NCBI GenBank assembly: GCA_965369995.1
Contig: CBDURO010000001.1
Span: forward strand, 10,260 to 74,259
Source: an uncultured bacterium
GTDB lineage: Bacteria; Fidelibacterota; Marinisomatia; Marinisomatales; JAHJCW01
DNA length: 64,000 bases
Direction: 5' to 3'
Shown here piece by piece: positions 12,807-47,174 of this stretch (positions are counted from its first letter, which is position 1; every line of letters begins with the position of its first letter). Below the pieces are notes generated by a model. That model worked only from the letters and a program-made list of their open reading frames with translations. It had not been told where the DNA came from and ran no database searches. The translations under genes were made by a program, and so were the position numbers.

Positions 12807-12808
12807 TA

Positions 12809-13507: not shown

Positions 13508-13680
13508 GATTAGAAATTAGGGATTGAAAATATCAGTGGTAGTTGCAGGATTTTAAGAGGGAGAAAAGGTGAGAGGGAGCATTGGGGAATTGGATTAATG
13601 GAGTTAATGGGTTAACGTGTTCACAACTCACGTTTTTTCAATTAATGACAATTAATGACCACTAATAAGTACCAATAACA
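13491..13680 (+). repeat. Mosaic intergenic repeat element, copy 1 (unclassified family)
   Basis: Collinear with 39323-39480. Shared blocks are GATTAGAAATTAG, ATTGGGGAATTG, TAATGGAGTT, the exact 31-mer ATGGGTTAACGTGTTCACAACTCACGTTTTT (13607-13637 = 39417-39447) and CAATTAATGACA. The core forms the hairpin AACGTG-N9-CACGTT followed by a T-run. Confidence 0.85.
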
Positions 13681-13753
13681 CCAGATATATTAACCTTTAA
13701 TCTTCAAAAACACATAAAATCCATATAAATTTCATTCAAATTAAACAGTAAAT

Positions 13754-16942: not shown

Positions 16943-17507
16943 TAAATACCGCTATACTGATGAAGAACTCATCGCCCGTTTCCAAAAGGGCGACGAAAAT
17001 GCCTACACGGAACTCGTTAATCGTTACCGGGATAGATTGATGACTTTTGTCTATCGTTTTGTTAATGATATGGAACAAGCGGAAGATATTGTTCAGGATG
17101 CGTTAGTAAAAGTATATACACATAAACATTATTATAAAGAAGTTGCCAAATTTTCTACTTGGGTTTATACAATTGCAGGGAACTTAGCAAAGACCGAATT
17201 ACGTAAAAGAAAACGAAGACAAACTTCGTCTTTGAGTACATTAGGATTGGATGATAAGGATTATGAATTACCGTCGGTTGAATTAGAAACAGGCGAGTAT
17301 ATTCAGGGGGAATACACCGAAAAAAAAATACAAGAAGCCATACAATCTTTACCGCTACATTTTAGGACTGTAATAATTTTACGTGATATTCAGGAACTTT
17401 CTTATGAGGAAATTAGTAATATCGTTAGTGTCCCTCTGGGAACGGTGAAATCTAGAATAAATCGTGCGAGATTGCAATTGCAAGAAGCACTTAAGGAGTA
17501 TAAATAG
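16935..17507 (+). CDS. ECF-type RNA polymerase sigma-70 family factor
   Basis: 190 aa. Region 2 (DIVQDALVKVY, FSTWVYTIAGN) and region 4 HTH (LSYEEISNIVSVPLGTVKSRINRARLQL). Confidence 0.9.
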   Translation: MINKYRYTDEELIARFQKGDENAYTELVNRYRDRLMTFVYRFVNDMEQAEDIVQDALVKVYTHKHYYKEVAKFSTWVYTIAGNLAKTELRKRKRRQTSSLSTLGLDDKDYELPSVELETGEYIQGEYTEKKIQEAIQSLPLHFRTVIILRDIQELSYEEISNIVSVPLGTVKSRINRARLQLQEALKEYK

Positions 17508-17522
17508 GAGCGTAGCCTATCG

Positions 17523-18074
17523 ATGGATCGTTATCAGTTAGAAGGTTATATATCAGATTATATTGAAAATAGTTTAAGTATCGCTAAACGTAAAGAATTT
17601 GAACAGTATTTAGCGAAACATCCCGAATCGAAAGAGCAAGTAGAAGCAGTTCGTTCAACAATATTACATTTAAAGAATTTACCTGGGGTAAAAACACCCA
17701 ATGATTTTATGGTAAAATTGCAGCAGCGCGTTGCTAAACAACGCGACGTAGTTCCGGTTGCACAAAAAAGACGTAAGCCATTGATCTTCGGTTTCACACC
17801 GCTAACTGCCGGTATGATGTCACTTGTGGTTTTGGCAATTGTATTTGTTGGCTACGAATTAATGCCAAGTGGAACGTCTAGTCCTATCGCAATTCCGCCG
17901 CAAATAACCACAAATAATGTAATGTCCGTTCCTGTGAATCCCACTCCTATGACACCGATAAATACCGAATCGGCAATTGCCGAAGTGGAGGAAGACAGCT
18001 CTATAATTGAAAAAGATTTGCAGCAAATTAGTCCTGAACTTGAGGATAAAATAAACTATGTGAGAACACAGTAA
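17523..18074 (+). CDS. Putative anti-sigma factor (single-pass membrane protein)
   Basis: 183 aa directly downstream of the ECF sigma gene. Helical N-terminal domain, one TM segment (LTAGMMSLVVLAIVFVGY) and a Pro/Thr-rich exterior tail. The call rests on position and architecture only. Confidence 0.5.
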   Translation: MDRYQLEGYISDYIENSLSIAKRKEFEQYLAKHPESKEQVEAVRSTILHLKNLPGVKTPNDFMVKLQQRVAKQRDVVPVAQKRRKPLIFGFTPLTAGMMSLVVLAIVFVGYELMPSGTSSPIAIPPQITTNNVMSVPVNPTPMTPINTESAIAEVEEDSSIIEKDLQQISPELEDKINYVRTQ

Positions 18075-18145: not shown

Positions 18146-19825
18146 ATGCGTTTAATTAATAAAAATATAAGATTAATATTCATACTGCTAATCTTAGCTA
18201 TTGTATTATTTTGTTTGCTATTTTTTAAGATCGGAGTTGGAATAGTATTTATTAATTTAATAATAGCCGGAATTATTACCGTTTTAGTATTTTTATTATG
18301 GGGATTGTTCAATAAAGAAAAAGTAAAAAAAATAAAACTGAGCTTAGATTTACCGAACTCAAAATTAAACGAAAACCCCAGAATTCCCTTCAATAAAACT
18401 TTAAAGTTAATTGGTGAACAGTTAAATACATTTAAACCGTCATTTAAGTTTGCAATATATCTAGTTGACCCTGAAAGCAATGGTTTTGTCTTACAAGATA
18501 ATTCGGTTGAATATTTTTCCAATTTAATAAATATTAAAAATAAAATTTTCCATAAGATCTTTAGCGAAGATCAAACTTTGTTAGTTAAACCGAATGAATA
18601 TCAAGATGAATGGACAGAGCTTTTTGCGGATATTGAAACTAATGAATCAAATTGTCTGTTAGGTTCAAAAATCAGTTATAAAAAATCCCCGATTGGCTGC
18701 TTATTTGCTTTTATTGATGATGTTAGAAGAGTTGATTCTAACGACCAAATAATTGTCCGACAATTTGCCGATCAAGTCACGCTGTCATTATCATTGATTG
18801 ATAATATTGAATCTCTTCAGAAACATCACACCATACAGGAAAAAATAAATTCATTAGTTAACACTGCAAATATTTCAGAAAATAAATCAGTTATTTATGA
18901 AAAAGCGGTGGAAATTTGCCAATCTATATTTAAATACGATAAATTGACAATTATGGTCAGCTATCAAGATATTGATCATGCACGAATTGATTTTGTTGAT
19001 GGATATTCGCTTGATATCAGTAGGGATGAAGTATTTTCGCTCAAGAATTCGATTTTTACAAATGTGATACAGGATAATCAAATTATTAATTCTAAAGATA
19101 TTAATAAAGATTTTGGTAAACGATATAGATTTTATGAAGATGAAAAAACTAAACGGAGTATCTCATCGGTACTTGCTGTTCCAATTATTATCAATCAAGA
19201 TGTTTCAGGTTGTATTGCATTAGAAAGATTTGAGGAAAAGGAATATTCTGCGATAAATCTTTTTTATCTTGAAAAGATTGCACAAATGCTAAATGTTTTA
19301 CTGCAATGGCAATCAGAATACCATAAGATGTATTTAAATACTACCCATGATAATCTTACAGGGTTATTAAATTATCGAGCATTTTTAGATCGCTTAGACG
19401 TTGAAATAAATCGTGCTTTGAGAACTGATCAATCTTTAGTGATAATTATCGTGGATGTTGATAAATTTAAAAGAATCAATGATACTTTTGGCCATCCAAT
19501 TGGCAATATTGCTTTAAGGAAAATAGCTGATTTAATTTCTTCAAGTGTAAGAAATATTGATGTCGTAGCACGGTACGGTGGAGAAGAATTTATTATTGCT
19601 GTTTCTAATTCCCAAAAAACCAGCGCTGAACAAATTGTAGAACGTATCGTTAGCAATGTTGCAAATAATATTTTTATTTTCAACGATCAAAGAATAAAAA
19701 TTACTGTGAGCGCAGGAATGGCAGAATTTCCTAAGGATTCTGACCAAGTACAAAAACTTATTGAGGCTGCCGATAAAGCTATGTACGCAGCTAAGAAACA
19801 TGGTGGTAACACATTTAGTATTTAA
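18146..19825 (+). CDS. Membrane-anchored GAF-GGDEF diguanylate cyclase
   Basis: 559 aa. Two N-terminal TM helices and GAF-like central regions. C-terminal GGDEF domain with DVDKFKRINDTFGH and an intact RYGGEEF active site. Confidence 0.88.
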   Translation: MRLINKNIRLIFILLILAIVLFCLLFFKIGVGIVFINLIIAGIITVLVFLLWGLFNKEKVKKIKLSLDLPNSKLNENPRIPFNKTLKLIGEQLNTFKPSFKFAIYLVDPESNGFVLQDNSVEYFSNLINIKNKIFHKIFSEDQTLLVKPNEYQDEWTELFADIETNESNCLLGSKISYKKSPIGCLFAFIDDVRRVDSNDQIIVRQFADQVTLSLSLIDNIESLQKHHTIQEKINSLVNTANISENKSVIYEKAVEICQSIFKYDKLTIMVSYQDIDHARIDFVDGYSLDISRDEVFSLKNSIFTNVIQDNQIINSKDINKDFGKRYRFYEDEKTKRSISSVLAVPIIINQDVSGCIALERFEEKEYSAINLFYLEKIAQMLNVLLQWQSEYHKMYLNTTHDNLTGLLNYRAFLDRLDVEINRALRTDQSLVIIIVDVDKFKRINDTFGHPIGNIALRKIADLISSSVRNIDVVARYGGEEFIIAVSNSQKTSAEQIVERIVSNVANNIFIFNDQRIKITVSAGMAEFPKDSDQVQKLIEAADKAMYAAKKHGGNTFSI

Positions 19826-19855: not shown

Positions 19856-21487
19856 TTGAAAAGATACAATAAAAGCACAGGATACATTTTTTGGATATTA
19901 TTTATAAATATAATATTTATATTTAATTGTAGTCAATTACCGACTGTACAGCAAGATAATTCTCGGAATATGGTAAATGAAACTAATTCAGAATTCAGTG
20001 GATTGGGGCAAATCAATACTGAAGCTTTACAGCATATCATGGATGGTCAATTATATTTAGATCAAGGTGATTTTGCGATGGCTATTGTTGAATTGCAAGA
20101 AGCTCAACGATTAGAGACGAATGTAAGTTCTATCTATGTTTTATTGGCGGAATGTTATTGGAATTTGAATAAACCGGAAAGATCTATGGAATATTTGGAA
20201 ACCGCAATAGAAATTGATCCAAATGATACTGACGTCCGGGAAGTAATAGCCGAACAGCATTTTCGACTTCAGGATTTTTCAAAATCAGAGCAACAATATA
20301 AATTATTATTAGAATTAAATCCCGAAAGTGAAGACTATTTATTCGCACTCGGTGATCTTGCAAAAATTCAAAAAAAGCATGATCAAGCAATTGATTACTA
20401 CAAAAATGTTTATGAGATAAATAATAATACTATCCAAGCTTTAGAATTGGCAGCTGATTTATCACATCGCTTGGGAAAGTTTAATGAAGCCGATATATTA
20501 TATCGAAAATTATTAAAAGCAGATAGCTTAAATGTAAATTATTTAGGTGCTTATGCTGATATAAACGTTCAATTAAATAATCCTAAAGAAGCTATCGAGT
20601 TAGTCAAAACGATTATTGCCATTGAGGGTTCATCTATAGACAATTTAATTCAATTAGGAGTTTTGTATAACGAGCTTGAAAAATATGATGAGGCAATAGA
20701 AATTTTTCAGGAAATATTGCAAGAAGACAGCACTAACACTACCGGTTTACATTTTTTGTCAACAATACATCGTGAAAACAAGGAATATAAAAAAGCTCAA
20801 TTGTACGCCGATAAAATGATAATTGCTTTTCCGGAAAATCCGCAGGGCATTATAAATAGTGTACTAATAGCGCTTGATCAGGATGACAGCGAAAAAGCTA
20901 TAACAATATTGTCTCCCGCCGCTGCCGATTTCCCTGACGAATATTCTATTCATTATTTGCTTGGTATGAGTTATAATCTTGCGGAGAATTATAAAATGGC
21001 AGCAGTTTTCCTTGATAATGCCCGGCAAATTGCTCCTAATTCACGGAATACTTTGCATTTGTTGGCAATCGTTAACGATAATCTTAATAATTGGACTATC
21101 TCAGATGGAATATATCAACAACTAATTCAAACCGATAGCACTGATGCACAAGCTTTTAATAATTACGCTTATAGTTTAATTGAAAGGGGTGATAAAATTG
21201 AATTATCCAAAAAATATTCCCGCCGCGCGATTGAATTAGCACCGAATCAAGCAGCCTATCTTGATACTTATGGCTGGATATTATTCAAAACTGGGAATAC
21301 CAAAGAAGCTCATAAATATATTGAGAAATCGTTGAAAATTGATAATGAAAATGCAGAAGTATTAGAGCATATGGGTGATATATTAATTAAGATGAAAAAG
21401 AAGACCGAAGCGAAAGAATTTTATCAAAAAGCATTATCATTTGACCCGAAAAACCAACAACTCATTGAAAAATTAAGTGATTTTTAG
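19856..21487 (+). CDS. TPR-repeat lipoprotein
   Basis: 543 aa. Signal peptide ending in a lipobox-like FIFNCS, then TPR repeats throughout. TTG start. Confidence 0.8.
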   Translation: MKRYNKSTGYIFWILFINIIFIFNCSQLPTVQQDNSRNMVNETNSEFSGLGQINTEALQHIMDGQLYLDQGDFAMAIVELQEAQRLETNVSSIYVLLAECYWNLNKPERSMEYLETAIEIDPNDTDVREVIAEQHFRLQDFSKSEQQYKLLLELNPESEDYLFALGDLAKIQKKHDQAIDYYKNVYEINNNTIQALELAADLSHRLGKFNEADILYRKLLKADSLNVNYLGAYADINVQLNNPKEAIELVKTIIAIEGSSIDNLIQLGVLYNELEKYDEAIEIFQEILQEDSTNTTGLHFLSTIHRENKEYKKAQLYADKMIIAFPENPQGIINSVLIALDQDDSEKAITILSPAAADFPDEYSIHYLLGMSYNLAENYKMAAVFLDNARQIAPNSRNTLHLLAIVNDNLNNWTISDGIYQQLIQTDSTDAQAFNNYAYSLIERGDKIELSKKYSRRAIELAPNQAAYLDTYGWILFKTGNTKEAHKYIEKSLKIDNENAEVLEHMGDILIKMKKKTEAKEFYQKALSFDPKNQQLIEKLSDF

Positions 21488-22097
21488 ATTATCAATTTTA
21501 CTGATTGCAAACATACTCGTTGTTATCAGTTGTAGTCAAGCACCTGAAATTGTAATTGATGAAATAGTTGATTTGTCCTATGATGAATTAAAACAACAAT
21601 ACATTACTTGTAAAGGCAAGGGAGTAATGACTGCTCAAGGAAAACTGCCATGGAAATTAAATTATTCTTTCACAACTCAAAACGATAGTTCCTTCATTCA
21701 ATTTAGAGACATTTTCAGCAGAAGAGTACTTTTTGTTCAAGCTTTGCCAAGTGAAATAACAATTTGGGATATGCAGAAAAACCTTCAATATGATTCTGAT
21801 ATTGGCAATGTGATACCAATTTTTAATATTTTGAAATCTTATGACATTGCTCAAATATTATGGGGAGAAATTCCGAAAAGATATCATATATCAAATAAAG
21901 AATCAGGTTTTGAAAGGGATTTAAACTTAGTAAATTTTGAATCAACTGTAACACAATTAGGAATGGTATTGGATAAGGTAATATTTAAGTTAGATTCTAT
22001 TGATACAAAAGTCGAATTCAAAATATTTGGAAGAGATTATGGTGAAGCAAATCTTGATTTATCGAAGGGAATCCCTAAACAAGTGCCATTAAATTAA
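21477..22097 (+). CDS. LolB-like / DUF4292-type outer-membrane lipoprotein
   Basis: 206 aa. Lipoprotein signal LVVISCSQ. Its size and its position after a TPR protein match what is common in Bacteroidota. No catalytic motifs seen. Confidence 0.45.
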   Translation: MIFRLSILLIANILVVISCSQAPEIVIDEIVDLSYDELKQQYITCKGKGVMTAQGKLPWKLNYSFTTQNDSSFIQFRDIFSRRVLFVQALPSEITIWDMQKNLQYDSDIGNVIPIFNILKSYDIAQILWGEIPKRYHISNKESGFERDLNLVNFESTVTQLGMVLDKVIFKLDSIDTKVEFKIFGRDYGEANLDLSKGIPKQVPLN

Positions 22098-22098
22098 T

Positions 22099-23031
22099 AT
22101 GAATAAATCTTTATCAGTTGTAATCCCAACCTATAATGAGCTAGAATCACTTACTGAATTAATTACAGCTTTAAAAGATGTACTAAAATCACATAATAAA
22201 TGGGAAGTATTATTCATAGATGACGGTTCAACTGATGATTCGATAGGATTTCTTACAGAAATTGTTACTAGTGAATCAAATTTCAAATTAATTCAATTAC
22301 ATCGTAATTATGGTAAATCGGCTGCCTTGGCGGAAGGATTCAAAGTGGCTACAGGAGATTATATTATTACAATGGATGCAGATTTACAAGATGATCCGAA
22401 AGAAATACCCAATCTAATTTCCAAGTTGGAGGAAGGATATGATTTGGTTACCGGTTGGAAAAAAACTCGAAAGGACCCTTGGACTAAACGGTTTCCATCA
22501 AAAATTGCTAATTTCGTAACAGGATTAATCACTGGTGTAAAAGTTCATGATATGAATTGTGGCTTGAAAATATATCGTCGAGCTGTAGTAAAATCAATAG
22601 ATATTTATGGAGGACGACATCGGTATATACCTGCTTTAGCCGGGCAAAAAAGATTTCGGATTGCTGAAATTCCCGTACAACATCATAAAAGACAATATGG
22701 TGTAACAAAATATGGCGGATCGCGTCTTTTTCATGGATTTTTTGATCTAATTACAATTCTCTTTTTGAATCGCTACACACAAAAACCTTTACATTTATTT
22801 GGCTTGTTTGGTTTATCCTGCCTTGCACTATCATTTATTAGTGAATTATATGTAGTTTTTTTAAAGATATTTTATAGTCATCCATTTCAAAAACATTTTG
22901 CGATGATGTTATTTGGCGTTATGTTATTCGTATTAGGATTATGGTTTTTCTCAATTGGATTAATCGGGGAGATGGTTGCTCAAACAACTCAAGATCGCGA
23001 AGACCGCGTGAAGCAAATACTTGGTAGTTAG
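22099..23031 (+). CDS. GT2 polyprenol-phosphate glycosyltransferase (GtrB/CsbB/ArnC/DPM1-like)
   Basis: 310 aa. SVVIPTYNE, FIDDGSTDDS and MDADLQDDP motifs, plus two C-terminal TM helices (LHLFGLFGLSCLALSF; MMLFGVMLFVLGLWFFSIGLIGE). That combination is typical of lipid-carrier-charging GT2 enzymes. Confidence 0.8.
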   Translation: MNKSLSVVIPTYNELESLTELITALKDVLKSHNKWEVLFIDDGSTDDSIGFLTEIVTSESNFKLIQLHRNYGKSAALAEGFKVATGDYIITMDADLQDDPKEIPNLISKLEEGYDLVTGWKKTRKDPWTKRFPSKIANFVTGLITGVKVHDMNCGLKIYRRAVVKSIDIYGGRHRYIPALAGQKRFRIAEIPVQHHKRQYGVTKYGGSRLFHGFFDLITILFLNRYTQKPLHLFGLFGLSCLALSFISELYVVFLKIFYSHPFQKHFAMMLFGVMLFVLGLWFFSIGLIGEMVAQTTQDREDRVKQILGS

Positions 23032-23058: not shown

Positions 23059-24177
23059 ATGCGTATAACACTTATAGGACCTTTTCCGCCATTCCGCGGC
23101 GGAATTTCCGATTTTAACTCAGCACTATTTAATGAATTGAATAAAACACATAGTTTACAGATAATTAATTATTCTACACAGTATCTAAAAATTCTTTTCC
23201 CCGGGAAAACACAATACAAAGATAATGTTGATGAGTCTCATAAAAGTGAACGAATATTAAGTTCAATCAATCCGTTTACATGGAGTAAAACTGCTAATAA
23301 AATTATCGAATTCCAACCTAACATTGTTGTTGTTCATTATTGGATGCCGTTTTTTGCACCTGCACTTCGAAAAATTGCTGTATCATTAAAGAAAAAAATA
23401 GATGCCAAAATAATAGCAATTTGTCACAATCTAATTCCGCATGAAAACCATTTTTTTTATCAACATTTCACAAAAACTTTTTTATATAAAATTGATCGAT
23501 TTGTAGTAATGTCAGAATCCGTTAAATCGGATTTATTAAAAATCATACCGAATGCAAAATTTAGATTAACACCGCATCCTATTTATAATATTTTTGGAAA
23601 TACTATTGATAAGAAAATTGCGAGACAAAATCTTGATATTAAAGCTAAGAATGTGATCTTATATTTTGGCTTGATTCGTGAATATAAAGGATTAGATATT
23701 TTATTAAATAGTATTCCAAAAATCAAACAGGAACTCAATGATTTTATTGTAATTGTAGTAGGTGAATGTTACGAGAAAACAGAAAAATATTATGATATTA
23801 TTGAAAATTTAAAAATACAAGATTCAGTTGATTTAAGATTAAAATTCATTCCTGATAATGAAATTTTGGAATATTTTTCAGCAGCTGATGTTGTGGCATT
23901 ACCATATCGCACTGCAACACAAAGTGGAATAACACAAATTGCTTATAATTTTAACAGACCTGTGATAGTTAGCGATGTTGGCGGATTGGCAGAAATTGTG
24001 CCAAATGGAAAAACCGGTTATGTCGTAAAACCTGACTCAAATGAATTCGCAAAAGCGATTATCAACTATTTTAAAGATAATAAATTTGAAGAATTTTCTA
24101 AAAATATTAAGGTTCATAAGCAATTATTTTCATGGGAAAAATTTGTAGATAACTTAATGGAATTAGCATCGGAATGA
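23059..24177 (+). CDS. Glycosyltransferase family 4 (GT-B)
   Basis: 372 aa. C-terminal GT1/GT4 signature region ADVVALPYRTATQSGITQIAYNFNRPVIVSDVGGLAEIV. Confidence 0.8.
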   Translation: MRITLIGPFPPFRGGISDFNSALFNELNKTHSLQIINYSTQYLKILFPGKTQYKDNVDESHKSERILSSINPFTWSKTANKIIEFQPNIVVVHYWMPFFAPALRKIAVSLKKKIDAKIIAICHNLIPHENHFFYQHFTKTFLYKIDRFVVMSESVKSDLLKIIPNAKFRLTPHPIYNIFGNTIDKKIARQNLDIKAKNVILYFGLIREYKGLDILLNSIPKIKQELNDFIVIVVGECYEKTEKYYDIIENLKIQDSVDLRLKFIPDNEILEYFSAADVVALPYRTATQSGITQIAYNFNRPVIVSDVGGLAEIVPNGKTGYVVKPDSNEFAKAIINYFKDNKFEEFSKNIKVHKQLFSWEKFVDNLMELASE

Positions 24178-25010
24178 ATCCTTTAGTTTATATAATTATT
24201 CTGAATTGGAATGGCAAGGATCTCACGATGGATTGCTTAAAATCATTAACGAAAGTTCAATATGATAATTATAAAATATTGGTTGTGGATAACGGATCAA
24301 ACGATAATTCAGTAGATATAATTAAGAAAGAATATCCCAATGTAGAAATTCTACAGTTAGATTATAATATTGGTTATGCGGCTGGCAACAATGCGGGATT
24401 TGATTTCCTAAAAAGTCAGAAACCTGATTATATAATATTTTTGAATAATGATACAATTGTTGATAAAAACTTTATTGAACCGCTTGTTAAGCCATTAGTT
24501 GATAATTCTGAGATAGGTCAAACAGTGCCTAAAATATTCTATGCGAAAGACCAAAACAGAATTTGGTATGCCGGTGGAAAGGTTAATTTATGGTTAGGCC
24601 AAATTTATCATAGTGGAATAAGGAAAAACGATAGTAGTAGATATTCCAAATCCCAATATACTGATTATGCAACCGGTTGTTGTTTTTGTATGCGCTATGG
24701 TGATTATTATGAACTTGGCGGATTTGACACATCATTTCCAATGTACTGTGAAGATGTAGATTTGTCGTTAAGAATTCGAGCTAGAGGAAAAAATATTTCA
24801 TACGTACCAAATTCAAATATTTGGCATAAAATTTCTGCTTCTATTGGTGGAGAATTGTCAAATATGAAACTTAAAAGGAAGTTACGTGGGTTTAAAATAT
24901 TATTTGGTAAGCATGCAAATTTTCTGCAGAAGATTACAATTATATTGTCTCGGATTATATCAATTCCGTATCGATTATTAAAATTTATTTATTTAATCAT
25001 AAAGAAATAA
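24174..25010 (+). CDS. Glycosyltransferase family 2
   Basis: 278 aa. IIILNWNG, VVDNGSNDNS, FLNNDT and CEDVDLSLR motifs. ATGA overlap with the upstream gene. Confidence 0.85.
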   Translation: MNPLVYIIILNWNGKDLTMDCLKSLTKVQYDNYKILVVDNGSNDNSVDIIKKEYPNVEILQLDYNIGYAAGNNAGFDFLKSQKPDYIIFLNNDTIVDKNFIEPLVKPLVDNSEIGQTVPKIFYAKDQNRIWYAGGKVNLWLGQIYHSGIRKNDSSRYSKSQYTDYATGCCFCMRYGDYYELGGFDTSFPMYCEDVDLSLRIRARGKNISYVPNSNIWHKISASIGGELSNMKLKRKLRGFKILFGKHANFLQKITIILSRIISIPYRLLKFIYLIIKK

Positions 25011-25011
25011 A

Positions 25012-25914
25012 ATGATTCAACTAATAAAAAATCGATTACAAAGAATTAAAGTAAATTTTAAACGTTTTGGATTGCTTAACACTGTAAAATATTTGATACA
25101 AAACGCAATTATAAAACGACCTGTTAATCAAATCAATTATTATCTAAAAAGGAAACAATATCCGCAGAATATAATTTTTATTACATCACTACCAAAAAGT
25201 GGATCAACGTGGTTATCAAATATGTGTTCAGGTTTATATGGATTTGATTTGTTTGCCCCGATCAAATGGAATACATATATTGCGAAAGAATGGGATGATT
25301 CACGTTGGGATTTAGAAACAGATATTTTTAAAGAATTCAGAAATAAGTTAGTGGTTATTCGTGGTCACACTTGGGCGATACCTAAAAATTTAAATGTATT
25401 AAAGAAATCTAATCTAAAATATATCATTGGCGTACGCGATCCTCGCGATAAATTAATTTCCGAATATTGGCATAGTAGGAATTTCCCAAAACATTGGGCG
25501 CATGACCAGGCACAAAAGCTTTCAATAAATGAATTTATTACGTATAAATTGGAATCCGGTGAATTTGAAAAAGAAACCTTAAACTGGATTAGAAATTGGT
25601 TGAAAAATCGTGATTTAACAAAATCAATAATTATTCGATATGAAGATATGTTAAATAATCCAAATACAGTTCTTGAAAAAATATTTAACTTTTTAGGTTT
25701 CAAAATTGAGCAGAAGAAAATAGAAAATATTATTGAAATAAATAGTTTTGATAAAATTACAGGTCGTAAACGTGGTAAAAACGATGATACAAAATTCGTT
25801 CGTAAGGGTGTGTCGGGTGAATGGGAAACTGCTTTTAGCAAGGAACAAAAGTCGTTTTTCAGTAAAATTGGTGAAGATGTAATTGAAAAACTGGGATACA
25901 CGCCTACAATCTAA
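25012..25914 (+). CDS. PAPS-dependent sulfotransferase (Sulfotransfer_1-like)
   Basis: 300 aa. 5'-phosphosulfate-binding loop PKSGSTW, 3'-phosphate-binding RDPRDKLISEYWH, and C-terminal RKGVSGEWETAF (the RKGxxGxW motif). Confidence 0.8.
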   Translation: MIQLIKNRLQRIKVNFKRFGLLNTVKYLIQNAIIKRPVNQINYYLKRKQYPQNIIFITSLPKSGSTWLSNMCSGLYGFDLFAPIKWNTYIAKEWDDSRWDLETDIFKEFRNKLVVIRGHTWAIPKNLNVLKKSNLKYIIGVRDPRDKLISEYWHSRNFPKHWAHDQAQKLSINEFITYKLESGEFEKETLNWIRNWLKNRDLTKSIIIRYEDMLNNPNTVLEKIFNFLGFKIEQKKIENIIEINSFDKITGRKRGKNDDTKFVRKGVSGEWETAFSKEQKSFFSKIGEDVIEKLGYTPTI

Positions 25915-25915
25915 T

Positions 25916-27445
25916 ATGAGTAATAAAAACTTTACCCCTGCTCAAAAAATTGCCAAGGAATCTACAATCTCATTTGTAGGATTGGGTTACGGTCAGTTTG
26001 TTAGATACTTATTTACTGCATTACTGGCTCGCTTGGTCGGGGTACAATATCTTGGTATTTATTCGTTAGGTAATTCCATAACCAATATAGCCGGTGTAAT
26101 CAGTAAAGCAGGTACCGATGTCGGATTAATGCGTTATATCAGTAGGCGCGATATTATAAAAGATCGAGAATCGATAAAAAATGATATTAAATCAGCATTG
26201 AAAATGGGACTCGTTTTCTCGATTATAATCATGTTAGCTCAAATAATGTTATCAAGATGGTTGGTAGAAAATGTGTTTGAAGCATCATCGTTATTGAGAA
26301 TTGTGTTAATAATTTATGCTGTGTCGATACCGTTTACGGCTCTAATGACGATAGCGACATTTGCCACACAAGGATTCCAATTACTTAAATATAAAGTCTT
26401 TGTGGAATACATTCTAAATCCAACAGTATTAATAGTTTCTATGATATTTATGTATTTTGCTTTTTCAAGTGAATTGGCAATAATTCTGCCAACATTATTG
26501 ACTGGAATCGCCGGCTTTACGGTTGCGAATTATTTCCTTAAGAAAATTGCAGGCGTCAATATTCTAAATATCGGGAATATCAATTTCAATAAAAAGATAC
26601 TTACTTATTCTTTACCAATAATGTTTACTATGATATTAGGTTCGCTTTTACATTGGATGGACATATTGATGTTGGGATATTTTACTAATACCGAGACTGT
26701 TGGATTATATCACCCGGCAGTAAGAACAGCCGGGTTACAGCAATCAATTTTAATTGCATTTGCAGGAATTTTTGCTCCGATGTTTTCAAAATATTTTGCT
26801 CAAGATAATTTTACCGGCATGCACCATATTTATAAATTAGTAACGAGATGGATACTTACTTTAGTGATTCCTGTTTTTATTTTAATTATTCTTTTTTCTA
26901 CAAAAATTATGCTTCTTTTTGGAGCAGATTTTATACAATCATCAGAGGCACTGATAATTTTATCGATTGGCACATCAATTTTTGCAATATTCGGAGTTAG
27001 CAGCACGGCATTGGTTGTATCGGGTTATCAAAAATTAAATTTAGTTAATGCTTTATCAGCGACAATTCTGAATATTTGTCTGAATATAATTTTAATACCA
27101 AAATATGGAATTATGGGTGCAGCGTGGGCAACCTTATCATCAATGACGTTTATTGCTATGGTACGCATAATAGAGACTCGAATTTTTCTAAAAATTAATC
27201 CATTTAATGTAAAAGTATTAAAACCAATCCTGGCTGGAATTATTACCTATGGAATTTTACAATACATTAAACCGAATTTAATGGTGTATCATACAGTCAT
27301 AACTTTGATATTATCGATTATAATAATTTTTGCTGTTTATGGTGTACTGTTATTACTATTTAAATTTGATAAAGATGACAAAGATTTTCTACGCTCACTA
27401 AATTTTCTTAAAAACATGGTAATAAAACCAACTGTTCGGAAATAA
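25916..27445 (+). CDS. Wzx-type polysaccharide flippase (MOP superfamily)
   Basis: About 509 aa with 12-14 TM segments. Typical polysaccharide-biosynthesis-protein organisation. I prefer the ATG at 25916, just after the sulfotransferase stop, over the track's TTG at 25883. Confidence 0.7.
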   Translation: MSNKNFTPAQKIAKESTISFVGLGYGQFVRYLFTALLARLVGVQYLGIYSLGNSITNIAGVISKAGTDVGLMRYISRRDIIKDRESIKNDIKSALKMGLVFSIIIMLAQIMLSRWLVENVFEASSLLRIVLIIYAVSIPFTALMTIATFATQGFQLLKYKVFVEYILNPTVLIVSMIFMYFAFSSELAIILPTLLTGIAGFTVANYFLKKIAGVNILNIGNINFNKKILTYSLPIMFTMILGSLLHWMDILMLGYFTNTETVGLYHPAVRTAGLQQSILIAFAGIFAPMFSKYFAQDNFTGMHHIYKLVTRWILTLVIPVFILIILFSTKIMLLFGADFIQSSEALIILSIGTSIFAIFGVSSTALVVSGYQKLNLVNALSATILNICLNIILIPKYGIMGAAWATLSSMTFIAMVRIIETRIFLKINPFNVKVLKPILAGIITYGILQYIKPNLMVYHTVITLILSIIIIFAVYGVLLLLFKFDKDDKDFLRSLNFLKNMVIKPTVRK

Positions 27446-27446
27446 T

Positions 27447-29801
27447 ATGTTATCAAAAAAACAATTAATTACAGTTCCCATTTTATTAGTGTTATTGTGC
27501 ATCATTTTTTATCCGGTAATTTTCCAAGGAAAAATATTTAGCTCGCCTGATTCACTAAATCCAAAAGCTGCTGCAATCATTTTAAGTGAAACACAAAAGG
27601 AAATTGGCGAGTATCCTCTTTGGCAACCTTGGATTTTTAGCGGCATGCCGACAGCCGAGTCATTCACAAACACAAGCAACTTATATTTTTTACAATACGT
27701 TTTCCAATTACTGCATATTCCTACGATCATTATACATTTATTACATTTTTTATTTGCCGGTTTAGGAATGTATATATTATTGCGCTACCTTAAAATATCG
27801 CAAATTGTTGCGATAATTAGTGGAGCTGGCTTTATGTTGATGCCATATTTGGTAACAATGGAAGTATTTGGTCATGGCAGCCAAGCGATGACAGCAGCAT
27901 ACATACCTTGGGCGTTTTGGGCAGCTCTCAAATTATTTGATAAACAAAGGATTTTGGATGCCGGAATGTTGGCAATCATTCTTGGTCTGCAACTTCAGCG
28001 AGCTCATGTGCAAATTGCTTATTACACATGGATGTTAATAGGAGCTTTATTCTTATTTAAATTAATATTGTATCTTATAGACAAAGAACTTCGCAATAAA
28101 GCGATTAAAGGAAGCGTTCTATTCGTTGTCGCTATTATTTTAGCACTTGGTATTGCTGCATTAGTCTATTTACCGAGTTTACAGTATTCCTCTGAATCAA
28201 TTAGGTCAGTTGGCCAACCCGGTTCAGCAAGCTATGATTATGCTACAAGTTGGTCATTTCATCCCAAGGAAATTCTTACATTTTTCATTCCATCTGCATA
28301 TGGTTTTGGAGGTCAAACATATTGGGGCAAAATGCCTTTTACCGATTATCCGAATTATATGGGTATAGTTTTTTTATTATTAGCTGTGTTTGCTATAATA
28401 AAAAAACGAAATGCTGTTGTATGGTTTTTAGCAGGAACAACCCTAATTGCTCTGCTAATTTCATTTGGACGACATTTTGGTATTGTATATAATTTATTTT
28501 ACGATTTTATTCCATACTTCAGCAAATTTCGGATACCAAGTATGATATTAATTATCGTTCAGTTCAATACCGTAATATTAGCTTGCTTCGGATTAGAACA
28601 ACTTGTTGAACGTAATTGGAAAGACATACCAAAATGGTTTTGGTGGATTGCAGGTAGCGCAGGTTTTATTATATTGATGCTACTTTTTGGCAGCGGTTGG
28701 TTAAAAGAAATAGTCTCAAACGGTTTCACACAGCCTCGTACACAAGATTCACGTTTTGTTGAAGTGATAAATAATTTAAGATGGAAAATGTGGATTAAAG
28801 ATGCTTGGTTAATGATATTATTTACCATAGGGTTGCTTGCTGCTTTTTTCCTTTTTATGAAAGATAATATTTCTAAAGTTATATTCATTGTAATAATTGG
28901 CGCATTAGCGCTTATTGATTTAGGAATAGTCAATTATAAAATAGTACAACCCGAACCAAATTCTGGAAGAGTTTCCCAACTTGTTAGTAAAAAAGCTATT
29001 GAGAGATACTTTCAACACGATAAAATAACCAAGTTCTTAACTGAAGATGAAACAGCTTACCGAGTTTACCCCATTGGTACCCTATTTGGTGAATCAAGAT
29101 TACAAGCCTTTGGAATTCAATCGGTAGGTGGTTATCATCCGGCAAAATTGGCTATCTACAATAGATTCTTATCTAAAACAAATAATATAAGTACATTGCC
29201 GCTAATGCGAATGATGAATATCCGTTATATACTTAGTCCACAAGTGGTAAATCATCCCGATTTAGAGAAAGTATTTATTGACAAAATGCAAACCGGTTCA
29301 GGTAAAATTACGATATGGGTTTATCGCATTTCACACAGTATCCCGCGTGCTTGGTTCGTCGATAAAGTTGAAGTTGTTAACGAAAACGATTTATGGCAAA
29401 ATCTATTAAATGAATCGTTTGATCCTGCACAAATTGCGTTTATTAATGAACCGCTTACTGAAGTAATCACCAAAGGCGATAAAATCTTGGAATATGAATC
29501 ATCAATTCATCATATTAAGCTGAAAACCACCTCTCAAAATGCAGGATTTCTTGCAATAAGTGAAGTTCACTATCCATTAAGATGGAAAGCAAAGATTGAT
29601 GGTAAACCGATCAAAACATATGAAACAAATGGTATAATTCGCGGAATAGAAGTTCCTGTTGGAGAACATATAATTGAATTTGAGTATGATAAATCAGTGT
29701 TTCATAAAGGAATATTAATATCAATTTCATCATTTATCTTAGCAATTGGTATTATAGCATTTGGACTGATTAGGAATAAAAAGACTAATGAACTGGTATA
29801 A
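27447..29801 (+). CDS. YfhO-family polytopic membrane protein (GT-C-type glycosyltransferase candidate)
   Basis: 784 aa. Many N-terminal TM helices, a large C-terminal extracytoplasmic domain and a final TM anchor, which is the size and topology of YfhO proteins. Confidence 0.55.
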   Translation: MLSKKQLITVPILLVLLCIIFYPVIFQGKIFSSPDSLNPKAAAIILSETQKEIGEYPLWQPWIFSGMPTAESFTNTSNLYFLQYVFQLLHIPTIIIHLLHFLFAGLGMYILLRYLKISQIVAIISGAGFMLMPYLVTMEVFGHGSQAMTAAYIPWAFWAALKLFDKQRILDAGMLAIILGLQLQRAHVQIAYYTWMLIGALFLFKLILYLIDKELRNKAIKGSVLFVVAIILALGIAALVYLPSLQYSSESIRSVGQPGSASYDYATSWSFHPKEILTFFIPSAYGFGGQTYWGKMPFTDYPNYMGIVFLLLAVFAIIKKRNAVVWFLAGTTLIALLISFGRHFGIVYNLFYDFIPYFSKFRIPSMILIIVQFNTVILACFGLEQLVERNWKDIPKWFWWIAGSAGFIILMLLFGSGWLKEIVSNGFTQPRTQDSRFVEVINNLRWKMWIKDAWLMILFTIGLLAAFFLFMKDNISKVIFIVIIGALALIDLGIVNYKIVQPEPNSGRVSQLVSKKAIERYFQHDKITKFLTEDETAYRVYPIGTLFGESRLQAFGIQSVGGYHPAKLAIYNRFLSKTNNISTLPLMRMMNIRYILSPQVVNHPDLEKVFIDKMQTGSGKITIWVYRISHSIPRAWFVDKVEVVNENDLWQNLLNESFDPAQIAFINEPLTEVITKGDKILEYESSIHHIKLKTTSQNAGFLAISEVHYPLRWKAKIDGKPIKTYETNGIIRGIEVPVGEHIIEFEYDKSVFHKGILISISSFILAIGIIAFGLIRNKKTNELV

Positions 29802-30951
29802 ATATTCAGTAAATATAAAAGCCGGGTTATTTATTCTTGGAATATTTCTTGTTTCTGCATTTGTACTTTTTACACAGAAGATCGTAAGAGATCTACGAGA
29901 TGATAATCGAGAAATTGTGCAGTTATATGCTGAAATAATAGCCGGAGTTGCAACAAGCGAAAATGATGAAAATTTAAATTTCATATTTGAAAATATCATT
30001 CAAAAAGTACAATTTCCACTAATTCAATCTGATGCGGAAATGAAGCCGATATCTTGGAGAAATTTACCGGATAATGTCAATTCTGAAGCCGGAGCTTTAC
30101 GGTATCAAAAAACCATGGATCACCAAAATGATCCTATTCCACTTGTTTATAAAAATCCTGATTCGAATGAAACAATTATATTCGGTTATCTGCATTTTGG
30201 AGATTCACGACTAATCAATCGATTGATATGGTTACCTTATTTGCAAATCGGATTAGTTGGTTTATTTATATTATTGGGATTTATCGGTTTTTCGGTAATT
30301 AGGAATAGCGAGAAAAGACATATTTGGGCGGGAATGGCACGTGAAACGGCACATCAATTGGGTACGCCTGTATCAGCTTTATTAGGCTGGGTTGACTTAT
30401 TGAAAACTAATCCGAATCGTTCAAAATCTATAGTGAAAGATATGGACATGGATTTAGCTCGCTTGCAGGAGATAAGTAGTCGCTTTAGCGATATGGGTAC
30501 CGCACCTAAATTTGAAAAATTAGATTTAGTTGAATTAATACAATCAATAATAAAATATCTGCAACATCGAGTTTCTGGAGTTGAAATCCGATTGACTTTT
30601 GATGATTCAGTGCAATATACAGTTAACGGTAATAAAAAATTATTAAGTTGGGCGATTGAGAATCTTGTGAAAAACGGAATTGATGCATCAAAGAATGTTG
30701 GGGGGAAAATCAATATAAATTTAAAAAAAGAGAAAAACCGATTTATTATAGATATAATAGATTTTGGTATGGGGATTCCTAAGAGAGATTGGAAGAATAT
30801 TTTTAGACCAGGATTCAGTACAAAAAAATACGGTTGGGGGTTAGGGTTATCTTTGACAAAAAGAATTGTTATGGATTTCCATAAAGGTAAGATTTTTGTT
30901 AAAGAATCTGTGATTGATTCCGGTACAACGATAAGTATAATCCTTAGATAA
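29788..30951 (+). CDS. Sensor histidine kinase (two TM segments, HisKA + HATPase_c)
   Basis: 387 aa. H-box ARETAHQLGTPVSALLGW, N-box ENLVKNGIDA, and G-boxes DFGMGI and GWGLGL. The start overlaps the yfhO-like stop by 14 nt. Confidence 0.85.
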   Translation: MNWYKYSVNIKAGLFILGIFLVSAFVLFTQKIVRDLRDDNREIVQLYAEIIAGVATSENDENLNFIFENIIQKVQFPLIQSDAEMKPISWRNLPDNVNSEAGALRYQKTMDHQNDPIPLVYKNPDSNETIIFGYLHFGDSRLINRLIWLPYLQIGLVGLFILLGFIGFSVIRNSEKRHIWAGMARETAHQLGTPVSALLGWVDLLKTNPNRSKSIVKDMDMDLARLQEISSRFSDMGTAPKFEKLDLVELIQSIIKYLQHRVSGVEIRLTFDDSVQYTVNGNKKLLSWAIENLVKNGIDASKNVGGKININLKKEKNRFIIDIIDFGMGIPKRDWKNIFRPGFSTKKYGWGLGLSLTKRIVMDFHKGKIFVKESVIDSGTTISIILR

Positions 30952-31028: not shown

Positions 31029-32741
31029 ATGACAACTTCATTGATAGAACCACACGGTGGCGAATTATGTAATTTATTTGTTTCTGAGGAACGTCAAAAA
31101 GAGCTGAAGAGTTTATTAATTAATGACGAATCATGGACTCTGACAGATAGACAAGTTTGCGATTTAGAATTAATTCTAAATGGTGGTTTTTCTCCGTTGA
31201 AAGGATTTTTTAATAAAAAAGACTATGATTCTGTAGTAAAAAATATGCGTTTGGCTGATGAAACTTTGTGGCCAATGCCAATTACACTTGATATAACCCA
31301 AGAGATTTCTGATAAACTTTCGCAAGGCGATAAGTTAGTACTGCGTGATAAAGAAGGATTTCCATTAGCAATTTTGCATATTGAAGATATTTGGAAACCG
31401 GATTTAAAAGCAGAAGCTCAATCTGTTTTTGGTACAGTTGATGATACACATCCGGCAGTAAATTATCTTTTGAATTTTACTAACCCTGTATATGTTGGTG
31501 GCACTTTAGAAGGCATGACATCCCCAAAGCATTATGATTATCAAGGACTTAGGCATACACCATCGGAGTTGCGTGAACAATTTTCAAAACGTGGTTGGGA
31601 AAATATTGTAGCGTTTCAAACTAGAAATCCAATGCATCGTGCTCATGTTGAATTAACGATGCGCGCTGCCAATGAAATTGGTGCTAATGTGTTAATTCAT
31701 CCGGTTGTCGGTTTAACTAAACCTGGAGATGTTGATCATTATACTCGGGTTAGATGTTATGAAAAAGTACTGCCAAAATATCCGCATGGAACAGTATTAT
31801 TAAGCTTGCTTCCTTTAGCAATGAGGATGGGCGGTCCGAGAGAAGCATTATGGCATGCAATTATCCGTAAAAATTATGGCTGTAATTTCTTAATTGTTGG
31901 ACGTGACCATGCCGGTCCCGGAAATGATAAGGACGGAAACCCATTTTATGGTCCATATGATGCACAAGATTTGTTAAAAGAGCATGAGAATGAACTCGGA
32001 ATAAAAATGGTTCCATTTAAATTGATGGTTTATATGGTGGATCGTGCGGAATATCGTCCTAATGATGAAGTACCGGAAGACGCAAAAATTCTAAGTATAT
32101 CCGGTACAGAATTACGACGCAGATTAGATAAAGGTTTAGAGATTCCGGAATGGTTTTCATATCCGGAAGTTGTTGAAGAGCTTAGAGTAACTAGACCTTC
32201 ACTAAATAAACGGGGTTTCTCAGTCTTTTTTACCGGACTTTCCGGTTCCGGAAAGTCAACATTGGCAAATGGATTGATGGTAAAACTATTAGAAGATGGT
32301 AGACGACCGGTAACGTTATTGGATGGTGATATCGTTCGTACCCATCTATCTAGCGAGCTTGGCTTTTCAAAAGAACATCGTTCAATTAATATACAAAGGA
32401 TTGGTTATGTTGCGAGTGAAATAACCAAAAATTTTGGTATAGCAATCTGTGCTCCTATTGCTCCGTACAAAGCTGATCGACAAGTAGTAAGAAAAATTAT
32501 TTCACATTATGGTGGATTTATTGAAGTGTACGTAAATACATCTTTAGAAGTATGTGAAAGACGTGATGTAAAAGGGTTGTATGCCAAAGCACGTCAGGGT
32601 ATTGTGAAAGAGTTTACCGGAATCAGTGATCCATATGAAAAGCCGGAGAATGCCGAAATTGTTATTAATTCAGAGGATACTGATCCCGAAATATTAGTAC
32701 AGGATATTTTACTTAAAATTGAACAATTAGGTTATATCTAA
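31029..32741 (+). CDS. sat/cysC: Bifunctional sulfate adenylyltransferase / adenylylsulfate kinase (PAPS synthase; Sat N-terminal, CysC C-terminal)
   Basis: 570 aa. ATP-sulfurylase motifs QTRNPMHRAHVEL and VGRDHAGPG. The APS-kinase domain has an intact P-loop GLSGSGKST and LDGDIVR. Confidence 0.92.
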   Translation: MTTSLIEPHGGELCNLFVSEERQKELKSLLINDESWTLTDRQVCDLELILNGGFSPLKGFFNKKDYDSVVKNMRLADETLWPMPITLDITQEISDKLSQGDKLVLRDKEGFPLAILHIEDIWKPDLKAEAQSVFGTVDDTHPAVNYLLNFTNPVYVGGTLEGMTSPKHYDYQGLRHTPSELREQFSKRGWENIVAFQTRNPMHRAHVELTMRAANEIGANVLIHPVVGLTKPGDVDHYTRVRCYEKVLPKYPHGTVLLSLLPLAMRMGGPREALWHAIIRKNYGCNFLIVGRDHAGPGNDKDGNPFYGPYDAQDLLKEHENELGIKMVPFKLMVYMVDRAEYRPNDEVPEDAKILSISGTELRRRLDKGLEIPEWFSYPEVVEELRVTRPSLNKRGFSVFFTGLSGSGKSTLANGLMVKLLEDGRRPVTLLDGDIVRTHLSSELGFSKEHRSINIQRIGYVASEITKNFGIAICAPIAPYKADRQVVRKIISHYGGFIEVYVNTSLEVCERRDVKGLYAKARQGIVKEFTGISDPYEKPENAEIVINSEDTDPEILVQDILLKIEQLGYI

Positions 32742-32748
32742 AAGTATG

Positions 32749-32784
32749 AAAAACCCTCAAGGTTTAACAAACCTTGAGGGTTTT
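32749..32784. terminator. Bidirectional rho-independent terminator between convergent sat/cysC and mpg
   Basis: A-run, then CCCTCAAGG (32754-32762), a 9-nt loop, CCTTGAGGG (32772-32780) and a T-run. The last codons and stop of the minus-strand mpg gene lie inside the hairpin. Confidence 0.8.
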
Positions 32785-44181: not shown

Positions 44182-44183
44182 TT

Positions 44184-45820: not shown

Positions 45821-45822
45821 AT

Positions 45823-47012: not shown

Positions 47013-47106
47013 CCTAAGTTGATGAGTTTATGAGTATAATAGTTTATGAGTCGGACAATTGGAGTTGTGGATAAATCGAGAAGTATATTTTTACAATTAA
47101 TGACAA
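47013..47106 (+). repeat. Partial or divergent copy of the same repeat family in the rnfA-rnfB spacer
   Basis: GGAGTTGTGG resembles GGAGTTGATGG of copy 2, and the exact 20-mer TTTTTACAATTAATGACAAC is present. A different 17-nt centre replaces the hairpin core. An internal GTTTATGAGT duplication is also present. Confidence 0.6.
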
Positions 47107-47174
47107 CACAATGTTTTATTTTAAAAAAAATAGATTTTTTCAGTGTAATCTGTGAAATTTATGGTTAAACAATA

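Follow-up and report, generated by a model that had tools for sequence, protein, structure and literature searches.

A predicted PAPS-dependent sulfotransferase in the variable slot of a Marinimicrobia glycan locus

We studied the gene at 25012-25914 (forward strand) in a 64,000-nucleotide stretch of DNA, hereafter the window, from an uncultured bacterium of the Fidelibacterota (Marinimicrobia), corresponding to positions 10,260 to 74,259 of contig CBDURO010000001.1 (assembly GCA_965369995.1). Sequence profiles and a structural model indicate that its product is almost certainly a sulfotransferase, with predicted activity, that depends on 3'-phosphoadenosine 5'-phosphosulfate (PAPS). The gene lies between the last gene for a cytoplasmic glycosyltransferase (GT) and the gene for a Wzx-type flippase, at a junction where relatives carry different tailoring genes. 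With moderate confidence, we favour the interpretation that the protein is an active cytoplasmic O-sulfotransferase that would sulfate a short oligosaccharide linked to undecaprenyl phosphate (Und-P) at the inner membrane face.

Identity of the sulfotransferase

The open reading frame (ORF) encodes a protein of 300 amino acids of the Sulfotransfer_1 type. It matched PF00685 with an E-value of 8.4e-29 and 101.2 bits, against a gathering cutoff of 22, and residues 55-291 covered profile positions 4-251 of 255. PF13469 was matched as well (E 9e-11), so that both profiles bear out the call of a sulfotransferase made in the first-pass annotation, which had read the letters of the sequence only. The Stf0 family PF09037 gave only E 0.16, and a scan of NCBIfam matched no family. 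In a single-sequence search of the PDB, human SULT2A1 and other cytosolic sulfotransferases (SULTs) were the best matches, at about 1e-12. With a family profile these reached about 1e-27, and the same search found the bacterial natural-product enzymes Teg14, Teg12 and StaL (1e-16 to 1e-14), the CurM sulfotransferase (3e-10) and tyrosylprotein sulfotransferases (about 1e-4). No heparan or glycosaminoglycan (GAG) sulfotransferase came above threshold in the family-profile search.

The structural model points in the same direction. An AlphaFold model built with 31 homologs as input had a mean predicted local distance difference test (pLDDT) score of 95 and a predicted template modelling (pTM) score of 0.91. 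The top 50 Foldseek matches to the PDB were all sulfotransferases (cytosolic SULTs), with E-values down to 2e-10; SULT7A1 ranked first (E 2e-10, probability 1.0), and SULT2A1 and SULT1A1 likewise had a probability of 1.0. Neither a signal peptide nor a transmembrane (TM) segment was predicted in the protein.

The three PAPS-binding motifs recognised at first pass are all present and in the expected order. The 5'-phosphosulfate-binding (5'-PSB) loop PKSGSTW spans amino acids 61-67 (nt 25192-25212) and contains K62. The 3'-phosphate-binding (3'-PB) motif RDPRDKLISEYWH, with R142 and S150, spans amino acids 142-154 (nt 25435-25473), and the C-terminal motif of the RKGxxGxW type, RKGVSGEWETAF, spans amino acids 264-275 (nt 25801-25836) and contains R264-K265-G266. 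An ORF with these motifs is far beyond chance. Across 31 homologs with identities down to 24%, K62, R142-D-P-R-D146, S150, W196 and W271 were invariant, and H119, R264, K265, G266 and G269 were at least 90% conserved. Hence, the modelled fold retains the catalytic and PAPS-binding residues that an active enzyme of this type would use.

We assign H119, in the triplet R117-G118-H119 (nt 25360-25368), as the catalytic histidine because it is conserved in the family, because it comes right after a strand (114-118) in the model, and because distant homologs read KTH at this column. A profile-profile alignment with SULT1A1 (hhalign) pairs K62 with K48, R117 with K106, H119 with H108, R142 with R130, S150 with S138, and R264-K265-G266 with R257-K258-G259. 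Two points count against this assignment. The SULT1A1 residue numbers in the alignment are provisional. In addition, the histidines are offset by 2-3 residues, beside an indel, in pairwise HMMER alignments with SULT2A1. The latter alignments were therefore not used as a basis for the catalytic histidine, and were replaced by the SULT1A1 profile-profile alignment together with the conservation within the family.

The reading frame also shows the signature of a functional gene. Compared with the 82%-identical orthologous gene of a related locus (L003), the differences fall 47/19/97 on codon positions 1/2/3, which argues for purifying selection on the frame 25012-25914. This count rests on L003, as the alignments with two other relatives (L004 and L005) were out of register owing to an indel and were discarded. 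An antisense ORF of 178 amino acids inside the gene (25365-25901, reverse strand) is interrupted by 5 stops in L003 and was rejected as a chance ORF; an equal number of stops in L004 falls in the part aligned out of register and is given no weight. The GC content is 34% in the window and 30% in the gene. In one relative (L002:10001-12442, of metagenome-assembled genome (MAG) MFD09964.bin.2.223), the orthologs of the sulfotransferase and of Wzx are broken across several reading frames and the genes beside them are intact at the level examined, owing to either assembly indels or pseudogenes.

The protein belongs to a small, separate subfamily of a very large superfamily: when 1.84 billion cluster representatives were searched exhaustively, 5442 relatives had E <= 1e-3 and only 31 (representatives at 50% identity) had E <= 1e-30. 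NCBI labels the homologs "sulfotransferase domain-containing protein"; there are 112, with names that include Candidatus Neomarinimicrobiota and Marinimicrobia. The closest match in a genome, at 87% identity, is from a MAG of an uncultured Candidatus Marinimicrobia bacterium, and a scan of genome contigs returned only two loci, one of which is in a Marinimicrobia MAG.

Relation to cytosolic SULTs and other sulfotransferases

Cytosolic SULTs of the SULT1, SULT2 and SULT7 groups (SULT2A1, PDB 4ifb and 3f3y; SULT7A1, PDB 5x2b) are the best PDB matches in both sequence and structure. The protein shares with them the PF00685 fold, the lysine of the 5'-PSB loop, a (K/R)xH segment, the arginine and serine of the 3'-PB motif, and RKGxxGxW. 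However, its identity to SULTs is only about 17-22%, and the KxxxTVxxxE (KTVE) dimer motif is absent; the sequence at this position reads GEWETAFSKEQK (EWETAFSKEQK). Homologs have GEWKxxFSxEQK here, and conserve neither the TV pair nor the terminal E. The term 'cytosolic-SULT-like' of the first-pass annotation thus applies to the fold and the motifs; membership of the eukaryotic SULT family, without KTVE and at ~20% identity, does not follow. Unlike the SULTs, moreover, the protein is bacterial, its gene is part of a glycan operon, and its substrate is presumably a lipid-linked carbohydrate.

Another difference from the SULTs is a basic N-terminal helical hairpin of ~50 residues that is specific to the family of the window sulfotransferase. 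It comprises amino acids 1-49, with helices at 2-19 and 21-49, a net charge of +12 and a pI of 11.2. Among homologs with identities of 36% or more, the N-terminal charge ranges from +4 to +14, whereas more remote homologs no longer have it. Such a conserved cationic surface would suit a phospholipid or polyprenyl-phosphate environment. We also considered an amphipathic membrane helix at the N-terminus, and rejected it since the hydrophobic moment was not significant (~10% of shuffled sequences reach it).

NodH, Stf0, Teg12/StaL and CurM-ST are PAPS-dependent members of the same superfamily, and act on Nod factor, trehalose, glycopeptides and a polyketide bound to an acyl carrier protein, respectively. 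The window sulfotransferase scores far better on PF00685 than on PF13469, which is the type of NodH (PMC11625862), or on PF09037 (Stf0).

A variable tailoring slot in relatives

The sulfotransferase gene is tightly packed between its neighbours. A single base separates its ATG from the stop codon of the upstream GT2 gene. Its own stop codon TAA (25912-25914) is likewise followed by one base and then by the ATG of the gene for a Wzx flippase of the multidrug/oligosaccharidyl-lipid/polysaccharide (MOP) family at 25916, as the first-pass annotation had it; gene calls in relatives use the same flippase start. That annotation also placed the gene after two glycosyltransferase genes. The placement is right, and the count is three (GT2, GT4 and GT2).

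We located the corresponding loci of relatives via homologs of the YfhO-like protein encoded downstream of Wzx, for which at least 1159 homologs were found versus 112 for the sulfotransferase. The slot was defined as the region between the second GT2 gene and Wzx. A core of GT2-GT4-GT2, slot, Wzx, YfhO and histidine kinase is conserved across the relatives, and is kept at about 50% YfhO identity. In relatives with a 79%, 67% or 52%-identical sulfotransferase, synteny runs from holA and a gene for an extracytoplasmic function (ECF) sigma factor through def, fmt and rsmB.

The content of the slot varies strongly. In the window it holds only the sulfotransferase gene, and three relatives with 69-79% YfhO identity (L003, L004 and L005) carry the orthologous gene; in all four a PAPS synthase gene follows the kinase gene. 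At YfhO identities of 49-51% the slot is filled differently, and no PAPS synthase gene follows the kinase gene. Locus L006 (50%) combines the orthologous sulfotransferase with a CDP-alcohol phosphotransferase and a glycerophosphotransferase. Loci L011 and L014 (both 51%) both carry a methyltransferase, a CDP-alcohol phosphotransferase and a GT4, with the methyltransferase gene leading in L011 and the phosphotransferase gene leading in L014, while L012 (49%) has a radical SAM/SPASM protein, a methyltransferase and two GT2s. Locus L013 (50%), from a Fidelibacterota MAG, contains four sulfotransferases of other families and a CDP-alcohol phosphotransferase. Conversely, the slot of L015 (70%) is empty, with a gap of 9 nt; its PAPS synthase gene is present after the kinase gene, and tblastn found no sulfotransferase in the locus.

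Such a pattern is expected of a core glycan that is conserved and that each lineage decorates in its own way, once the last cytoplasmic sugar is in place and before the glycan is flipped. Because the content of the slot varies at a fixed junction, the acceptor of the sulfotransferase would be the product of this locus, and we consider this the strongest evidence on the acceptor. The glycan-cluster context proposed at first pass is thereby borne out, since the gene occupies the slot between the last cytoplasmic GT and the flippase of a phylum-wide locus and has a PAPS synthase gene in its operon. Homologs of 42-48% identity in other phyla are found in classical clusters with Wzx, Wzy and Bac_transf genes, often together with more sulfotransferases; in a Rhodocaloribacter MAG, such a cluster adjoins genes for a PAPS synthase and an anion transporter.

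Several relatives show further peculiarities. The sulfotransferases of L013 (L013:3523-8483, GCA_046861385.1) match PF13469, PF03567/Gal-3-O-sulfotransferase, PF13469, and faintly PF00685 with PF13469, which suggests that the same core glycan is sulfated more than once in this relative; a GT9 gene is also inserted between its first GT2 and GT4 genes. CDP-alcohol phosphotransferase genes recur in the slot (L006:8968-12249, L011:6621-7298, L014:226-903), and the glycerophosphotransferase of L006 is of the teichoic-acid type, a hint that other lineages may decorate the glycan with phospho-alcohols. In L015 (JGI 3300005975; 6622-8994 and 12523-14235) the GGDEF gene found at the head of the string in the window is missing as well. 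Finally, the Wzx proteins of the window and L003 (10905-12434) are only 54% identical, versus 70-85% for the flanking genes. Possibly, the flippase evolves faster or was exchanged.

A probable Und-P route rather than a classical Wzx/Wzy pathway

The genes around the slot, all on the forward strand, suggest how the glycan might be assembled. The first GT2 (22099-23031; PF00535, TM helices and NCBIfam matches) is of the polyprenyl-phosphate type and the likely Und-P initiator. Over its full length it matched ArnC (E 1.6e-61), PgfS (3e-40) and AglJ (1e-21), all below the equivalog cutoffs, and each of these enzymes loads a sugar onto a polyprenyl monophosphate. Its sequence contains the motif D93-A-D95 and ends in two TM helices. 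It is followed by a soluble GT4 of the GT-B fold (23059-24177), predicted to act in cytoplasmic elongation, and by a soluble GT2 of the GT-A fold (24174-25010), predicted to add the last cytoplasmic sugar; both were assigned by family match. Downstream of the sulfotransferase are the Wzx-type flippase (25916-27445; PF01943, PF13440, MatE), with about 12 TM segments, and the YfhO-like protein (27447-29801).

The YfhO-like protein, a putative GT-C glycosyltransferase of 784 amino acids, has about 13 TM segments, a periplasmic beta-rich domain and a terminal TM segment. An aspartate in its first external loop (D35) is invariant in 30 homologs. Homologs are named YfhO family, PF09586 matches the C-terminal part, and the model has a moderate pLDDT of 77. 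The top 17 Foldseek matches in the PDB were all GT-C enzymes (AftD, STT3, AftA, ArnT and PglB), which use polyprenyl-phosphate donors.

Of the components of classical Wzx/Wzy clusters, the flippase is present (25916-27445). Among ORFs of at least 150 amino acids in the window, we found no initiating phosphoglycosyltransferase (PGT) of the Bac_transf or WecA/MraY type, and there were no matches in the window to Wzy (Wzy_C), the polysaccharide co-polymerase PCP (Wzz) or the outer-membrane export protein OPX (Poly_export). The conserved syntenic loci of eight relatives also contained no PGT, Wzy, PCP or OPX. Two features of multi-component Und-P systems, in contrast, were found, namely an ArnC-type GT2 with a DxD motif and a membrane anchor, and a GT-C protein with an acidic residue in an external loop. 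Because of the ArnC-like GT2, the GT-C fold and the lack of PGT, Wzy, PCP and OPX in the window, the pathway is probably an Und-P/GT-C system and not a classical Wzx/Wzy system, as judged from sequence and models. The cluster should not be annotated as a standard Wzx/Wzy O-antigen locus.

Several observations pull the other way. The TM-scores of the YfhO-like model to solved GT-C structures are modest (0.33-0.51), and the Pfam YfhO match is confined to the C-terminal 70 residues of the 784. Moreover, a priming PGT and a polymerase could be encoded beyond the window, in which case the carrier would be undecaprenyl pyrophosphate (Und-PP). The ArnC-like GT2 could also merely supply a monosaccharide donor to the GT-C enzyme, instead of priming an oligosaccharide.

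The link with PAPS synthase

A bifunctional ATP sulfurylase/APS kinase (PAPS synthase; 31029-32741, forward strand) is encoded five kb downstream of the sulfotransferase in the same gene string, and closes the operon; the first-pass annotation had not mentioned it. It matched NF004040 with 907 bits against a cutoff of 669. PAPS genes and a sulfotransferase in one cluster have been described as a hallmark of sulfated polysaccharide synthesis (PMC11641403). The PAPS synthase gene follows the kinase gene throughout the clade with sulfotransferases of at least 67% identity, and takes the same position in L002-L005.

Two observations run counter to a dedicated supply of PAPS. Locus L015 keeps the PAPS synthase gene with an empty slot, and L006 and L013 have sulfotransferases with no adjacent PAPS synthase gene. 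A strict co-variation of PAPS synthase with the sulfotransferase is thereby ruled out, and the adjacency of the two is at least partly a clade trait. A dedicated donor supply is still plausible, and the link is suggestive, not strict.

Proposed mechanism and alternatives

In the mechanism that we favour, the ArnC-like GT2 would load the first sugar onto Und-P, after which the soluble GT4 and the second GT2 would lengthen the chain. The sulfotransferase would then add a sulfate group, with PAPS provided by the ATP sulfurylase/APS kinase of the operon. The Wzx-type flippase would bring the sulfated lipid-linked glycan to the periplasmic face, where the YfhO-like GT-C enzyme would hand it to an envelope acceptor. 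The histidine kinase, and perhaps the GGDEF protein, would regulate the locus. This order of steps is the same as the order of the genes. The computations establish the family or fold of each component, the catalytic residues of the sulfotransferase, and the conserved locus with its variable slot. From these we infer the lipid-linked acceptor, the final acceptor, the order of steps and a carrier that is a monophosphate instead of a pyrophosphate. As the protein is soluble and PAPS is cytoplasmic, no other option than sulfation before flipping is simple in terms of topology. The idea of the first-pass annotation that a lipid-linked sugar is modified on the cytoplasmic face before flipping is therefore supported by the soluble protein, the position of the slot and the PAPS synthase, with the acceptor itself a matter of inference.

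An alternative explanation might be that the locus belongs to a classical Wzx/Wzy pathway, in which the sulfotransferase acts on a repeat unit linked to Und-PP and the PGT is encoded elsewhere. The ArnC-like GT2 and the GT-C enzyme would then add only a separate side-chain sugar, or the YfhO-like protein would replace a polymerase or ligase. The genes of priming enzymes can lie apart from their clusters, and the homologs of 42-48% identity (L009 and L010) are accompanied in their clusters by Wzx, Wzy_C and Bac_transf. The synechan xss cluster, which has been characterised, is also of the Wzx/Wzy type (PMC8205485). Nevertheless, we consider this explanation rather unlikely, as PGT, Wzy, PCP and OPX are missing from both the window and the loci of eight relatives, and as one flippase and one periplasmic transferase in the locus fit a single pathway.

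It is more improbable still that the enzyme acts on a substrate other than a lipid-linked glycan (a small metabolite, for instance, or a nucleotide sugar or membrane glycolipid), and that its position in the locus is incidental or regulatory. Its closest solved relatives are indeed small-molecule SULTs, followed by Teg12, Teg14 and StaL, and heparan or GAG sulfotransferases are absent from its PDB sequence matches. Yet in relatives other glycan-tailoring enzymes are encoded at this very point between the last GT and the flippase, the family of the sulfotransferase recurs in glycan clusters of unrelated phyla, and the window contains no natural-product genes. Least credible of all, and in our view very improbable, is a degenerate or non-catalytic homolog, or an ORF that is not expressed. 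This would fit with the lack of an NCBIfam model that names the protein and with the gene of L002 that is split across frames. It is at odds with catalytic and PAPS-binding residues that are invariant or at least 90% conserved, with the excess of third-position differences and with the pLDDT of 95; the splits in L002 also hit the adjoining Wzx gene, which points to assembly indels. The reading of a cytoplasmic sulfotransferase that modifies an Und-P-linked oligosaccharide thus remains the one we prefer.

Comparison with known systems

At the level of the cluster, the locus resembles the xss genes for synechan in Synechocystis PCC 6803, where the PAPS-type sulfotransferase genes XssA and XssE lie among GT genes with Wzx and a two-component regulator. 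Genetic evidence links the xss cluster with a sulfated extracellular polysaccharide (PMC8205485). The xss cluster, however, has a priming GT, Wzy and PCP, all of which the locus in the window lacks; in their place it has an ArnC-like GT2 and a GT-C protein.

The combination of a GT2 that synthesizes an Und-P-linked sugar, a flippase and a GT-C enzyme is shared with GacI/J/K/L of group A Streptococcus, WpsA/B-WpsG-WpsJ of lactococci and CsbB/YfhO of Bacillus. This trio defines the Und-P multi-component glycosylation systems, and the flippase is Wzx-type in GacK and WpsG (PMC10821137, PMC8035078, PMC5836110). In the lactococcal polysaccharide pellicle (PSP), a C55-P-linked sugar is elongated by cytoplasmic GTs, flipped by a Wzx-type protein and transferred by a GT-C enzyme (PMC10821137). 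These systems are from Gram-positive bacteria and concern teichoic acids or rhamnan, and sulfation is not known from any of them. The host of the window, in contrast, is a diderm of the Fibrobacteres-Chlorobi-Bacteroidetes (FCB) group, and its locus has a sulfotransferase and a PAPS synthase in addition.

Sulfation of a polyprenol-monophosphate-linked sugar before translocation has been described for the low-salt N-glycan pathway of Haloferax volcanii (Agl5-Agl15), where Agl7 sulfates a hexose linked to dolichol phosphate (DolP) and the sulfated DolP-glycans were detected by mass spectrometry (PMC3892788). The likeness is one of pathway description; Haloferax differs in being archaeal, in its dolichol phosphate carrier and in its target, an S-layer glycoprotein. 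A similar gene list has been published for a putative sulfated GAG cluster of Pontiella sulfatireligans F21, with GT2, GT4, a TuaB/Wzx-type protein, a sulfotransferase, yfhO and an Und-P GT2 (PMC7356697, Fig. 5). Pontiella makes sulfated exopolymers, and its sulfotransferases are reported to be of the PF13469 type (PMC7356697). It differs in belonging to the Kiritimatiellota and in its many additional genes, and no mechanism was proposed for it.

Gene string and other genes of the window

The gene string is compact, with mostly overlaps or 1-nt gaps at its junctions, and its remaining members are also on the forward strand. At its head lies a gene for a GAF-GGDEF diguanylate cyclase (18146-19825), absent in L015, whose product may act as a cyclic di-GMP regulator of the glycan locus. 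Directly upstream of this gene is a pair encoding an ECF sigma factor and a single-pass anti-sigma factor (16935-18074), at a position that is conserved in relatives. Two lipoproteins with lipobox-like signals follow. One is a tetratricopeptide repeat (TPR) protein of 543 amino acids (19856-21487), with PEP-CTERM-system PrsT as its best NCBIfam match, below the cutoff; the other, predicted from its sequence, has 206 amino acids (21477-22097), and no Pfam or NCBIfam family matched it even at E 5. In all relatives examined, both genes are directly upstream of the first GT2 gene. A membrane sensor histidine kinase (29788-30951), the presumed regulator, overlaps the GT-C gene by 14 nt, and its position after that gene is likewise conserved in all relatives examined.

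A hairpin with a 16-bp stem and T-runs (32750-32784), between the convergent genes for PAPS synthase and a DNA glycosylase, is likely the end of the operon and the only terminator-like site that stands out. A promoter scan of 16.5-34 kb gave 103 sites versus 96 expected, and was uninformative.

The remaining genes of the window are housekeeping genes (GlmS, UppP, Rnf complex, isoleucyl-tRNA synthetase IleRS, LspA) plus an IS1595 transposase; cysH was not found in the window. The genes for BacA/UppP (13754-14518) and GlmS (9110-10954), a few kb upstream of the locus and with the same orientation, are probably housekeeping, and relate to lipid-carrier and amino-sugar supply. The transposase of the IS1595 family (ISXO2-like; 55583-56362) is the sole mobile-element gene seen in the window, and a 173-aa ORF on the opposite strand overlaps it. 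A complete operon for an Rnf-type ion-translocating ferredoxin:NAD oxidoreductase (RnfC, D, G, E, A, B) is found at 42865-48017. At 3029-4585, a PglZ (alkaline-phosphatase-like) domain is fused to a response-regulator receiver domain.

Implications for Marinimicrobia and bacterial glycan sulfation

The Marinimicrobia (SAR406) are an abundant group without cultured members. Glycan clusters of bacteria with sulfotransferases have been documented before, for synechan and in Vibrio, Cobetia and Pontiella, and bacterial PF00685 proteins are numerous. To our knowledge, the acceptor has been defined for hardly any bacterial carbohydrate sulfotransferase. According to a 2024 review, sulfated polysaccharides have been reported from only about six genera of bacteria (PMC11625862). 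We found no published description of this Marinimicrobia locus; in the literature, Marinimicrobia and sulfotransferases were mentioned together only incidentally, and a search for Marinimicrobia with terms for glycosyltransferases and polysaccharide biosynthesis yielded nothing. What the analysis adds is the architecture of the locus, in which a probable Und-P/GT-C route is combined with an exchangeable tailoring cassette.

In terms of annotation, 25012-25914 becomes a glycan-tailoring sulfotransferase. With three GTs, a sulfotransferase, a flippase and a GT-C enzyme, the locus offers a compact testable system, and its relatives provide natural variants of the cassette that are sulfotransferase-free, methylated, phospho-alcohol-bearing or multi-sulfated.

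More tentatively, and with rather less than even confidence, we suggest that the Marinimicrobia/Fidelibacterota share one phylum-wide Und-P pathway for an envelope glycan (ArnC-like GT2, cytoplasmic GTs, Wzx and a YfhO-type GT-C enzyme), of which only a cassette at a fixed junction varies; here the cassette would add sulfate, with a PAPS synthase gene in the same operon. If so, an Und-P-linked oligosaccharide would for the first time be known to be sulfated in a bacterial GT-C pathway, and abundant uncultured deep-ocean bacteria would display and shed lineage-specific sulfated surface glycans. Such glycans would bear on the interactions of Marinimicrobia with phages and grazers, on their metal binding, and on the deep-ocean pool of sulfated organic matter that requires sulfatases.

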